Assembly: GCA_041736305.1 (NCBI GenBank)
Contig: JBGSTX010000002.1
Location: 1-60,067, forward strand
From: Oligoflexus sp.
GTDB lineage: Bacteria > Bdellovibrionota_B > Oligoflexia > Oligoflexales > Oligoflexaceae
Direction of reading: 5' to 3'
Length of the DNA: 60,067 bases
Part shown: positions 1 through 3,145 of the stretch, one piece after another
Numbering within the stretch: the first letter of the stretch is position 1
Layout of the letters: every line of letters begins with the position of its first letter
The notes under the pieces: model-generated
What the model saw: the letters and a program-made list of their open reading frames with translations, nothing else
Databases searched by the model: none
Told to the model about the DNA's origin: nothing
Position numbers and translations under genes: made by a program

Positions 1-200
1 GCAAGCAGCACTGGCCTAATCCCCTTACTCCTGTTTAACCACTTGCCTTAGAGCCCAGGACTGGTGAAGCATCCGGGGGTAACTATCTGATTCGCTCGTA
101 ACGTAGCTTGAGAGTTGCCTCTCTTGCTCGGGCGGGTCAACGTGAGACATGTTCAGAACCACTCTTCACATGCCTGCCTCTTTAGAGGCGGGTAGTTGAC
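1..200 (-). ncRNA. IscB/IsrB-type omega RNA (HEARO-like) scaffold, truncated at the window start
   Basis: Minus strand from 200 reads GTCAACTACCCGCCTCTAAAGAGGCAGGC...GTTGACCCGCCCGAG...CTACGTT...GATAGTTACCCCCGGATGCTTCACCAGTCCTGGGCTCTAAG...GTTAAACAGG...CAGTGCT. This follows the motif order known for HEARO/IscB omega RNAs: GTCAAC/GTTGAC closing stem, GCCTC-TAAA-GAGGC hairpin, CTACGTT, GGATGCTTCACCAGTCC, GTTAAACA. Confidence 0.88.
1..200 (-). mobile_element. End of an IS200/IS605-superfamily (IscB-type) element; the nuclease ORF is expected left of the window
   Basis: Inferred from the omega RNA scaffold. The boundary is placed at GTCAAC (200) with a subterminal hairpin at 176-189. Confidence 0.65.
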
Positions 201-391
201 CGGGGGCTCCTTGCCAGCAAATTTCATAAGTCTTTCTAACTTTTCTTGACTGGCTGGCCAAGTGAAATTTTAATTATTTAATAAATTTTTTGACGTATTT
301 CAAAATGTCCCATCGAGTAAGTCATAATAACTATATTTTCGGCATAAAGCCCTCCAATAGACGTGGCTGTCCTAGCAAGTCTAGTTTCGCT

Positions 392-1300
392 CTAAAAGCG
401 GTAGCCGGCTCGAGCGACGAGATAGTAGAGCTTGAGCTGTGCGGATATTTCATTACTGACTCGGCCTTCGATAGTCTCTCCACTCAAGAACTCACTGGTA
501 AGATCTGCGTCAGTCGTCGAATCGACTTCGATACTGCCCGTGATAGGAAGCGCAAAGCCAAACCAGTCAGCCCCAAGATAAAAGTCTTTAGCTATGTTCC
601 ATTGGCTACCTAGGAATATATCAGCGACGAATACGGAAGCTGTATAACTCGAACTCATAAAGCCGTCTTTTACGCCGGCTCCTTCCCAACCAAAGTCTCC
701 TGATATTTTAGCGTAAGACATACCAACGCCAAAATAAACCGGATCTAAGCCAATATAGCGAGTTTGAATTTTAAACTGGTCCATCTGGGCACTGAGGATT
801 TCATCGAGCTCGTCGCTGATACTTTGGGTCAAATCTGCCTGGGTGTGAGTGTAGTAAACACCGCCTGTGAGCCAGGACAGAGGACGATAGTTGTACTCGA
901 GTCCTCCTCCGCTTCCCAAATAGCTCAAGATACCTAGTCCCCCTATTTGATGATTCTGCTCCGTATCAATAGTCATCTGCGGACGACTTTCATAGGTGGG
1001 CGCGCTAGGCCTAGGACGGGCAGGGCGCGTAGGTCGAGCAGAAGGCACTGGAACTGGATTGGGATGGTGCTGCCTGTCTGCATTGAAGGACGGCAGTACG
1101 GTTGATGGGCGCGTATTCGAAGGTTTAGTTTTGGTGGCCTGGGCAATCCGTGTCGAGCTGCTCGCTTGCTTGAGAGGAACTCCAGTGTTATCAAGCAAAG
1201 ATATATTTTGACCATGTAGCTCGGGAGCCAAGGCGAAGGTAAAAGCAAAAGCTAAAAAGCTGCCAAGTGCAAGTGGCATGTAAAGCGTGCGGTTGAACAC
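392..1300 (-). CDS. Hypothetical outer-membrane beta-barrel protein with a Pro/Arg-rich N-terminal linker
   Basis: GTG start at 1300 with GGAG RBS (ORF track starts at 1348); signal peptide; amphipathic strands; C-terminal ARAGYRF. Confidence 0.7.
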   Translation of the reverse strand: MFNRTLYMPLALGSFLAFAFTFALAPELHGQNISLLDNTGVPLKQASSSTRIAQATKTKPSNTRPSTVLPSFNADRQHHPNPVPVPSARPTRPARPRPSAPTYESRPQMTIDTEQNHQIGGLGILSYLGSGGGLEYNYRPLSWLTGGVYYTHTQADLTQSISDELDEILSAQMDQFKIQTRYIGLDPVYFGVGMSYAKISGDFGWEGAGVKDGFMSSSYTASVFVADIFLGSQWNIAKDFYLGADWFGFALPITGSIEVDSTTDADLTSEFLSGETIEGRVSNEISAQLKLYYLVARAGYRF

Positions 1301-1384
1301 AGCTTGTCTCCATGGGGATCTTGAGAGATGTCCTCCTAGGATAAGCAAAAACGACCAAGCTCGTAAATCGACAATGGAGAGTGC

Positions 1385-2194
1385 ATGGAAAAAATCACGA
1401 TTGTAGGTTTGGGTAATATGGGGGGCGCCCTAGTTCGAGGGCTGGAGAAATCTCCTTTGAAAGATGCTCTTGCAATCGATGTTTTCGATGTCGATCCGAA
1501 GCGGACAGAAGCCGTCAGTATGGGCGAAAGGGTAAAAGGTCTTCGCTCGCTCATGGAAGTCCAGATCGAAAATAACATCATCATATTTTGCGTGAAGCCG
1601 CAGGATCTGCCGAACATAGCCGAAGTTCTTGGGGGGCGACTGCAAAAGTCCTGTCTAGTCGTCTCGATTCTGGCTGGCAAAAAAACTTCGACCATAGCTA
1701 AAGAGCTGCGCTTTGAGGGTCCAATCGTTCGGGCGATGCCCAATATTGCCGCCATTATCGGTTTCGCGGCAACTGCGATGTGCTCGAATGAGGTCTGCAC
1801 CAACGAACAGAAGCAGCATGCCGAAGCTATTTTTAAGGCGGTTGGTGAAGCCTATTGGACGAAAGAAGTCTTGATGGATGCGGTTACAGGCCTGTCCGGA
1901 AGTGGACCCGCTTACATCTATATGGTCATAGAAGCCTTATCCGACGGCGGGCTTAAGATGGGTATGCCACGTGATCTCGCGCTCAAACTTGCAACACAGA
2001 CTGTGCTTGGTGCGGCTGCGCTCGTGAAGCACAGCGGCCTGCACCCCGCTATTCTCAAAGATCAGGTGACGACTCCGGCCGGGACTACCATTTCTGCTCT
2101 TCATGAGTTGGAGGAGCGAGGGCTCCGCTCGATGTTTGTCAATGCCGTGGAAAAAGCCACCCTCAGATCGATCGAGCTCGGTAAAGCTCCCTGA
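1385..2194 (+). CDS. proC: Pyrroline-5-carboxylate reductase
   Basis: GLGNMG Rossmann motif, VKPQ, RAMPN, SGSGPAY, VTTPAGTT. Confidence 0.97.
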   Translation: MEKITIVGLGNMGGALVRGLEKSPLKDALAIDVFDVDPKRTEAVSMGERVKGLRSLMEVQIENNIIIFCVKPQDLPNIAEVLGGRLQKSCLVVSILAGKKTSTIAKELRFEGPIVRAMPNIAAIIGFAATAMCSNEVCTNEQKQHAEAIFKAVGEAYWTKEVLMDAVTGLSGSGPAYIYMVIEALSDGGLKMGMPRDLALKLATQTVLGAAALVKHSGLHPAILKDQVTTPAGTTISALHELEERGLRSMFVNAVEKATLRSIELGKAP

Positions 2195-2215
2195 TCAGTG
2201 GGCAGCTCAGGACTT

Positions 2216-3145
2216 TTAAAAAGACGTGGAGAGGCTCACATACCACTGTGTCGTGTAGATGTCGAATATGTAAGCTTCGGAGATTCCGCCCGTCTTTTCG
2301 ACCAAATCGCTCTGCGAATAGCCTCCACCTAAGACGAGTTCTTCTAAGATTTGGTAGGACGCGTTGAGGTCGATGGAATAATTCGTGTTGAGGAGAGCAG
2401 CAGAAGTCGCCGTCGAAACTCGATTTCGGTAGCCTAAATCGAAATATTTGATGCGCACGTAGCTGACAGCGGCTGTCGTCGTTAAATCTTCGAGGACAGT
2501 GTAGGCCAGAGTATTGTCAATCGACCAGGAGTACTCCCGGAGAGGGGAACCGCCACTTCCGCCTGGGGTGGTCTTGGTGGTTTTATACCGGCTGATGTTG
2601 TACTGGGCCCCTGCACCGAGCGTGTAGCTCAATCTCTCTTCGAAAAAATTCTGCGTGATACTTACTTCTGCTCGCGGTTTGCTTGTGACTTCTTGGCGTC
2701 GCGAAAACTCCGAAACGGGGAGCGTTAGCGAAAACGAGGCGGCAGTCTGAAATCCGTAGAAGGGTTTATCGAAAGCCCTGCTGACGCCGAGAACTGTATC
2801 TGCGGCCTGGATTTCGTCTTCTTCGGCATAAACGTAGTAGCTCTTGTTCAAGCGCTGGCCGAGACTGAAGTTGTATTTGTTGAAACGCCAAAGACCACTC
2901 AGGTCAATCGCCGTGAAAGGATCTACTTCCTTCCGAAAGCCGAGATAATGAGTGAGACCAAGTCCAAAGCCATAAACTTTTTCATCGGTAGAAGCTTTCT
3001 GCGCCTCCTGCGACAAAGGCTGATTCGCCGTTTGCGGAGACGCTGGAGCAGCCGCCTCGTCGGCCCTGGCTCCTGCTGAGGTCCAGCTGAGGGCAACGAC
3101 TAGCAGCGAACGCGGCGATAAGAGCCTCGAGCGAGAGATGCGCAT
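2216..3145 (-). CDS. Hypothetical outer-membrane beta-barrel protein
   Basis: ATG at 3145 with AGGAG RBS; signal peptide ending ARA; alternating beta-strands; C-terminal WYVSLSTSF. Confidence 0.72.
   Translation of the reverse strand: MRISRSRLLSPRSLLVVALSWTSAGARADEAAAPASPQTANQPLSQEAQKASTDEKVYGFGLGLTHYLGFRKEVDPFTAIDLSGLWRFNKYNFSLGQRLNKSYYVYAEEDEIQAADTVLGVSRAFDKPFYGFQTAASFSLTLPVSEFSRRQEVTSKPRAEVSITQNFFEERLSYTLGAGAQYNISRYKTTKTTPGGSGGSPLREYSWSIDNTLAYTVLEDLTTTAAVSYVRIKYFDLGYRNRVSTATSAALLNTNYSIDLNASYQILEELVLGGGYSQSDLVEKTGGISEAYIFDIYTTQWYVSLSTSF

Follow-up and report, generated by a model that had tools for sequence, protein, structure and literature searches.

The first 220 nucleotides of the window (i.e., the whole stretch of 60,067 nucleotides analysed here, corresponding to contig C79 from base 1) harbor, on the minus strand, a guide and most of the scaffold of a genuine IscB-type omega (HEARO) RNA, whose identity is confirmed far beyond chance. 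The analysis of the contigs that may continue this sequence makes it highly probable that the object is an omega RNA borne on a mini element devoid of iscB. The features of the window and of the related contigs are reported in Table 1.

Table 1. Features of the omega RNA, of the element carrying it and of related genes (window positions, unless a contig is named).
Feature	Position	Strand or placement	Basis or remark
Upstream host ORF, 318 aa, co-oriented with the omega RNA	392..1348	minus	ORF track; context
A+T-rich spacer between upstream ORF and guide	221..391	minus	sequence
Guide TTGCTGGCAAGGAGCCCCCG, ~16-20 nt	220-201	minus	flank adjoining the scaffold on its 5' side
First 200 nt of the scaffold (HEARO 1-173) and 5' end of the mini element	1..200	minus	covariance-model match, copy comparison
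GTCAAC	200-195	minus	outer stem with GTTGAC
Subterminal hairpin CCGCCTCTAAAGAGGCAGG at the element 5' end	191-173	minus	read from sequence
Hairpin GCCTC (189-185)-TAAA-GAGGC (180-176)	189-176	minus	direct reading of letters
GTTGAC	141-136	minus	outer stem with GTCAAC
CTACGTT	106-100	minus	conserved motif
GGATGCTTCACCAGTCC	74-58	minus	conserved motif
GTTAAACA	39-32	minus	conserved motif
Remaining ~39 nt of the HEARO model	off-window, C178 or C179	continuation of the RNA	contig overlap
Terminator-like hairpin GCCGGGAAAGACCGGC and T-run	C179:235-260	after the scaffold	sequence
Right-end hairpin CCCACCGATGAATCGGTGGG	C178/C179	~25 nt from the element 3' end	read from sequence
Junction ORF, 272 aa, trypsin family (Pfam Trypsin), lipoprotein-like N-terminus	C179:341-1156	from the junction ATG	Pfam
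Junction ORF, 327 aa, class IV aminotransferase (Aminotran_4), IlvE-like	C178	from the junction ATG	Pfam
Second IscB subtype, intact genes	C219:25612-27033, C254:3247-4721		78% identical to each other
Y1_Tnp (PF01797) fragments	C337:2942-3130, C300:8-112, C53:11289-11372, C165:10755-10937		four matches; three at contig ends, one with five stop codons

Identity and Structure of the Scaffold

A preliminary description of this DNA, made from its letters, had proposed an IscB-type omega RNA at the window edge and had advised a check with the Rfam HEARO model. When positions 1-3000 were compared by cmscan with 4227 Rfam families, the sole match was HEARO (RF02033), at positions 200..1 of the minus strand; the match is significant, and its score (90.5 bits vs. 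a gathering score of 83, E 2.2e-18) bears out the proposal. It covers positions 1-173 of the 211 of the model and carries a mark of truncation on the 3' side of the RNA (38 positions missing), because the window starts at a contig end. Complete sister copies score 113.9 and 103.6 bits. Fourteen HEARO matches, many of them at contig ends, were found in the own genome, and none of the 14 control genomes contains one.

The motifs named in the preliminary description all lie on the minus strand where it had placed them. In the HEARO alignment, the outer stem corresponds to GUCAAC:GUUGAC, and CTACGTT, GGATGCTTCACCAGTCC and GTTAAACA fall on the most conserved stretches of the consensus. The folding of 14 related scaffolds with RNAalifold gave 57 pairs, 20 of which show at least one compensatory double change, which, given the relatedness of the sequences, represents support and not proof. 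The scaffold pairs are also retained in the iscB-less copies L007, L004, L027 and L031. As a separate observation, an RNA-library (metatranscriptome) contig from another habitat (X4 record 22; 183 nt, one mismatch) covers window positions 19-200 and stops at the first base of the scaffold; it is a weak hint that scaffolds of this type are abundant as RNA, the contig itself being no demonstration of transcription.

The Element beyond the Contig End

The assembly consists of 392 contigs and is rated 92.7% complete. The terminal 141 bases of C79 are common to contig C80, and 140 bases overlap with the starts of C178 and C179, which are the only overlap partners of the C79 end among the 392 contigs. 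Judging from these shared ends, two entries (C79 and C80) meet two exits (C178 and C179), the pattern left by a repeat of two copies that was collapsed where the k-mer paths branch. On both exits, the HEARO model reaches its 3' end at position 179 and is followed by ~100 nt more, containing three small hairpins and the terminator-like hairpin; the element then ends with ...GAGGCGGTTT, which adjoins an ATGAA, and beyond that motif C178 and C179 differ. The right terminus of the mini element reads ...GTGAGGCGGTTT, and the ATGAA that follows it is the start codon of a host ORF.

Concerning what lies to the left of the window, the preliminary description had left two possibilities, i.e., an iscB/isrB gene or, in the case of an orphan RNA, nothing. 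An adjacent iscB/isrB was looked for in both possible continuations and is absent from them; the examination of stop-to-stop frames, of tblastn matches with the own IscB and of the Pfam families of the junction ORFs disclosed no iscB on C178, C179, C342 or C371. The orphan alternative is thus favoured, since neither continuation carries the gene. The two contiguous sister copies (C342 and C371) span ~405 bp from GTCAAC to the ATGAA junction, with no similarity to iscB and no protein gene, and ten right ends and seven left ends of the window subtype, with different flanks, attest to a multi-copy state. It is therefore likely that the window RNA sits on a non-autonomous derivative, ~405 bp long and without iscB, of an ISC element (IS200/IS605 superfamily), a judgement that we pass jointly on this element and on the mechanism proposed below.

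The link between C79 and C178/C179 rests on a k-mer overlap in a two-copy repeat, and a third path through an unbinned contig is conceivable. The window copy might accordingly be full-length, with its iscB on an unbinned or unassembled contig; the window does end inside a repeat, the interiors of other IscB elements are indeed absent from the assembly, and the completeness of the bin is that given above. However, the C79 end has no more than two overlap partners, neither of them with iscB, the two entries balance the two exits, and the first 200 nt of the window scaffold are 97.5% identical to the iscB-less C371 and C342 and only ~81% identical to the scaffold ends of full-length elements, which makes a full-length window copy very unlikely.

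The upstream genes on C80 are ilvB- and leuA-like; because these match the ilvE-like ORF on C178, operon logic suggests that C80 pairs with C178 and the window with C179, even though the contigs of the public runs did not separate the pairs. The sister copy on C80 (C80:1-260, minus strand) sits after ...TAAGGAGCAGACATGTCT, directly downstream of the leuA-like gene. If C80 joins C178, one may speculate that the ilvE-like ORF has lost two codons (ATG TCT) to the left flank and now starts at the junction ATG. The trypsin-like junction ORF of C179 belongs to a large paralog family, with 15 matches in the own genome and 6-30 in each same-genus genome.

The search for relatives with an empty site, also advised in the preliminary description, did not yield an empty allele. 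The comparison of window positions 201-1400, as DNA, with 40 relatives gave only a 63-nt unrelated match; the protein encoded by the C179 junction ORF, searched in 13 same-genus genomes, retrieved the large paralog family, with the neighbours of the window at 0/11 loci; and the exact 30-mer of the guide flank occurs neither in the metagenome contigs nor in the genome contigs searched (0 in each). The exact ends of the element and the absence of a target duplication are suggested by the comparison among copies only. A contig of a ~4%-diverged strain (X2 record 16, from a public run) spans the 200/201 junction, so that the insertion in the window is older than this strain divergence.

Relationship with Full-Length IscB Elements

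The search in relatives comprised 40 genomes (13 of the same genus and 27 others) in addition to the own genome. HEARO was found, usually in a single copy, in 8/13 same-genus genomes and in 1/27 of the others (G015, same family). Six of the same-genus genomes (loci L018, L020, L019, L017, L025 and L022) carry a scaffold with 76-87% identity to the window type, after which come a frame of 430-445 aa and, about 1.3 kb beyond the scaffold, a right end (...GGTGGGTATCCTTGTGAGGAANNATT, then ATGA) that matches that of the mini element. The L018 ORF contains the Pfam domains RRXRR (237 bits) and HNH, and the PLMP motif is present. Since the same scaffold and the same right end flank IscB in these six relatives, the mini element is a derivative of a full-length IscB element, in which the RNA end and the right end have been kept and the iscB ORF is absent. 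It is not the outcome of a plain deletion, because ~68 nt around the terminator-like hairpin have no counterpart in the full-length relatives. Copies of the same iscB-less build exist in another species of the genus, i.e., L027 (86% over 394 nt) and L031 (70%). The latter (L031:1501-1782, in G009) shows a 43-nt insertion in the 3' part of the scaffold (columns 215-257 of alignment A1) and still scores 108 bits with HEARO.

Nucleases and Transposases Elsewhere in the Genome

The tblastn search with the own IscB retrieved only C219 and C254, i.e., two intact genes of 377 and 394 aa with RRXRR and HNH domains, which adjoin a different scaffold subtype, 55-58% identical to that of the window. The scaffold of this second subtype starts with GTCAATCACCCC and is found on C219 and C254, and also on C59, C310 and C216; the copies on C59 and C216 (the latter at 29.6 bits) are iscB-less or degraded. 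The terminator/right-end module of C59 is the one of the window-type mini element (84% over 58 nt).

When the IscB proteins of the relatives were used as queries, C109 (positions 2-724) was found to encode residues 187-429, i.e., the C-terminal 243, of an IscB 67% identical to that of L018, starting at the contig edge. C109, C255, C217, C31 and C30 all begin inside the 3' end of that iscB, and their right ends lead into different flanks starting with ATGAA. A contiguous copy in G006 connects right ends of the C109 type with the contig ends that carry a scaffold (C12, C65, C363 and C217); compared with the scaffolds of the full-length elements on C12 and C65, that of the window shows 81% identity. 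So, as read from these contig ends, the genome contains at least five copies of the full-length IscB element, of which only both ends are seen, the interior being missing from the bin. On C109, the end of one such copy lies at the start of the contig (positions 1-815). The circumstances that would have refuted the preliminary identification, namely the lack both of a covariance-model match and of any iscB in the genome, do not apply here, as the genome has 14 HEARO matches, two intact iscB genes of another subtype and, from a closer iscB, five or more 3' ends.

The multi-copy full-length element (C109 type) would be the most plausible supplier of IscB in trans, with a scaffold differing by ~19% and with only the C-terminal part of its protein known; the chances that an IscB actually uses the window RNA in trans may be regarded as evenly balanced. 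As for transposases, all Y1_Tnp matches in the genome are fragments (Table 1) and the assembly has no complete tnpA; the IS200/IS605 tnpA is probably multi-copy and unassembled as well.

The RNA might also be a passenger or a relic, the mini element being moved by a Y1 transposase through its end hairpins while no IscB loads the RNA, which would be of no use to the element. This is compatible with the fact that the assembly contains no intact cognate iscB, that degraded HEARO copies exist in the genome (such as that on C216) and that the scaffold overlaps the end hairpin, a part needed for transposition anyway. However, the whole ~240-nt scaffold has been kept in iscB-less copies of two species (C342, C371, L027 and L031, with 103-115 bits), and its pairings have been maintained by compensatory changes, even though only the ends are needed for transposition. 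Moreover, the iscB ORF has been replaced by a segment placing a terminator-like hairpin after the scaffold, which looks like a dedicated RNA unit, and standalone omega RNAs working with IscB are in print (in the available part of PMC9581776). A relic thus appears unlikely, and an RNA served in trans remains the preferred reading.

Guide, Upstream Flank and Host Gene

The 5' limit of the scaffold lies between positions 200 and 201, where seven copies of the own genome lose similarity, exactly upstream of GTCAAC; several contigs from three public runs match up to 200 or 201 and then continue into unrelated sequence. Because similarity among the copies stops at GTCAAC and the contigs diverge at 200/201, the guide is the left flank of the element, and the preliminary description had located it correctly, in the flank 5' of the scaffold. 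To our knowledge, the guide is taken from the flank in all IscB systems.

The guide contains a Shine-Dalgarno-like motif (AAGGAG) that ends 6 nt before the 200/201 junction, and if the guide AAGGAG is joined to the ATGAA beyond the element, the normal layout of a ribosome-binding site and a start codon results. The same layout is found at the left flanks of C342 (GAGG, then 6 nt) and C80 (AAGGAG); C371 has no such ribosome-binding layout and no ORF at the junction. On the basis of this arrangement, the guide appears to be the host gene's own translation-initiation leader.

The search of the guide against the genome and phages, advised in the preliminary description, revealed nothing above chance besides its own site. 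The 5.02-Mb assembly contains no second match with at most one mismatch in 16 or at most three in 20 (elsewhere, the closest sequences differ from it at 2 positions of 16 or at 4 of 20), and the matches with phages (E 0.6) and plasmids (E 0.1) are at chance level and cover window positions 240-219, not the guide. A host-directed or phage-directed guide was rejected, the genome, phages and plasmids giving only such chance matches. The guide would find a counterpart solely in its own site without the insertion, in agreement with the homing model demonstrated experimentally for TnpB and IscB in the available passages of Meers et al. (10.1101/2023.03.14.532601).

As regards transcription, a promoter scan found no sigma-70 consensus upstream of the guide on the minus strand, and one on the plus strand only; other promoter types or read-through remain compatible with this result. 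Transcription of the guide would have to start in the spacer or read through from the upstream gene. In the available part of the same work (Meers et al., 10.1101/2023.03.14.532601), the synthesis of the IscB omega RNA must start outside the element, and iscB tends to have the same orientation as the gene upstream of it; the window fits this bias, its upstream ORF being on the same strand as the omega RNA. This 318-aa ORF has no Pfam family at E <= 0.001; it shows a hydrophobic N-terminal stretch and a proline-rich middle.

Target Site and Possible Docking at ATGA Start Codons

The right ends abut ATGAA in 15/15 cases in the own genome (two related subtypes) and ATGA in 8/8 cases in the genus relatives, and the left flanks of the copies share no common motif. 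By these junctions, the target fits the N/ATGA known for ISC transposons with a 5'-GTCA terminus.

A side observation concerns the frames that open at these junctions. In the own genome, the junction ATG is itself the first codon of a frame of 130 codons or more at 6 of the 15 right ends (C342, C178, C179, C161, C84 and C217), and five of the eight junctions in the genus relatives open a frame of at least 100 codons; from our own reading of the N-termini, these five look like IleS, TrxB, endonuclease V, Fic and a pentapeptide-repeat protein. In all eight ends of the genus relatives, the ATG is preceded, at 7-12 nt, by GAGG or AAGG.

The survey was extended to 68 IscB loci (L058-L125) from many phyla; 44 of them reach the C-terminus, and in 41 the sequence continues for 500 nt or more beyond the stop. 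In 35/41 loci, a frame of 100 codons or more in the same direction has its first ATG between -10 and +260 nt relative to the stop of the iscB frame; 31 of these 35 frames start with ATGA (i.e., 31/41 usable loci), vs. 36% of long frames in the own genome with an A next to their first ATG (p = 1.9e-10). In 16/41 loci, the iscB frame has no stop inside the element and terminates within the junction, 11 times as ATGA and 5 times as TGATG. In multi-copy sets from Nitrospirae, Cupriavidus, Actinomycetes and Vreelandella, similarity ends exactly before ATGA, where different ORFs begin.

Among the ATGA sites of the own genome, 4.9% start a long frame, a value that rises to 27.8% among the sites where an insertion interrupts no long frame; as another raw baseline, 17% of the ATGAA sites are open for at least 130 codons. 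Compared with 27.8%, 31/41 gives p = 2.7e-10 and the 5/8 of the genus relatives p = 0.04, these values being subject to a baseline from a single genome and to ORFs called mechanically. The 6/15 of the own genome is above the raw 17% and 4.9% and is not significant vs. the non-disruptive baseline (p = 0.22). A start-codon bias from the own genome alone is not claimed, in view of this last value. In reading the counts, it should be considered that L058, L060 and L077 seem to coincide with three of the eight genus-relative ends and that copies within one genome share the element, not the insertion sites.

A tentative reading, to which we give slightly less than an even chance, is that the IscB elements of this clade are parasites of 5' leaders. 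The N/ATGA target, together with selection, would place them between the ribosome-binding site and the ATG(A) of a host gene, co-oriented with it, so that the host promoter would transcribe guide, omega RNA and iscB. The host might be paid back either by a built-in Shine-Dalgarno-like motif ~7 nt before the right end (Oligoflexus type, including the mini element of the window) or by an iscB frame that stops in the target TGA, i.e., by translational coupling. Among the papers listed by full-text searches, which covered the main texts of freely accessible papers, none combined IscB with Shine-Dalgarno or translational coupling, and the terms "start codon", "initiation codon" and "intergenic" are absent from the available passages of PMC4810608; the docking of IscB at ATGA start codons may be new.

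The same layout raises the possibility that the insertion in the window has been co-opted to control the downstream gene, the terminator lowering read-through and the ribosome-binding site of the element replacing the native one, perhaps with an RNA-guided repressor. Indeed, the native AAGGAG is separated from the start codon by the element, which has a GAGG of its own about 6-7 nt ahead of the junction ATG, and the insertion is common to the ~4%-diverged strain. Yet nothing points to a nuclease-dead IscB, the sequence next to the site of the guide itself is GTCAAC and not ATGAA, so that the occupied locus should escape recognition, and the same layout at many unrelated genes fits a transposon habit over a dedicated regulator. 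Co-option is, consequently, extremely improbable.

Proposed Mechanism and Significance

Considered as a whole, the data are probably best explained by an iscB-less mini element with an omega RNA served in trans. From the anatomy of the element and the published work on the family, we infer a mechanism based on host-driven transcription, IscB provided in trans and cutting of the empty site. Host transcription from upstream would yield guide and scaffold and end at the terminator of the element; an IscB from the multi-copy full-length elements might then load the window RNA in trans. A Y1 transposase would excise the element, and the complex would cut the restored empty site (the guide sequence followed by ATGAA as TAM), after which recombination with the sister chromosome might return the element, according to the homing model in the available part of Meers et al.

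These results imply that a HEARO match at a contig edge need not mean an adjoining nuclease gene. The IscB family breaks the assembly of the own genome at more than 20 contig ends, and the nuclease-coding interiors are largely missing from the bin, so that iscB counts in such assemblies are underestimates. In the window copy, an element without iscB retains its guide RNA in full, together with a terminator of its own; this clean natural example is what would be expected if guide RNAs are selected for service in trans. The docking, if true, would link the transcription of the guide, the tolerance of the element next to genes (e.g., ileS- and trxB-like ORFs) and the use of ATGA as target motif.

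Comparison with Known Systems

The RNA of the window is like HEARO (RF02033) in its outer stem, first hairpin, single-stranded motifs and 5'-flank guide, and in the relatives the scaffold lies directly upstream of an IscB with RRXRR and HNH. It differs in that no iscB follows the scaffold and in the ~100 nt extra with hairpins. The latter may be no real difference, as RF02033 lacks additional structural elements according to the available passages of Meers et al. (10.1101/2023.03.14.532601). The missing iscB bears on the type of element and not on the identity of the RNA, orphan copies being accepted HEARO members.

In the part of Kapitonov, Makarova, Koonin 2016 (PMC4810608) available to us, ISC families with a 5'-GTCA terminus insert at N/ATGA without duplication and are mobilised in trans by Y1 transposases. 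The window element shares with these transposons the 5'-GTCAAC start, the ATGA right junction, the subterminal hairpins and the lack of a transposase of its own; unlike them, described in those passages as protein-coding, it has no iscB ORF.

Protein-less PATE-like elements, which encode omega RNAs served by a nuclease in trans, are reported in the available passages of Meers et al. (10.1101/2023.03.14.532601), and standalone omega RNAs can function with IscB according to those of Hirano et al. (PMC9581776, citing Altae-Tran et al. 2021). With both, as far as these passages describe them, the window element shares its shortness, the lack of a protein, the multi-copy state, transposon ends and the need for a nuclease from elsewhere. 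The PATE-like elements in the Meers passage are TnpB-served, whereas the window element is IscB-type and carries its own terminator (10.1101/2023.03.14.532601). Such a mini element of the IscB type, found in Oligoflexus-like bacteria and equipped with a terminator, is, thus, a new instance and not a new principle.
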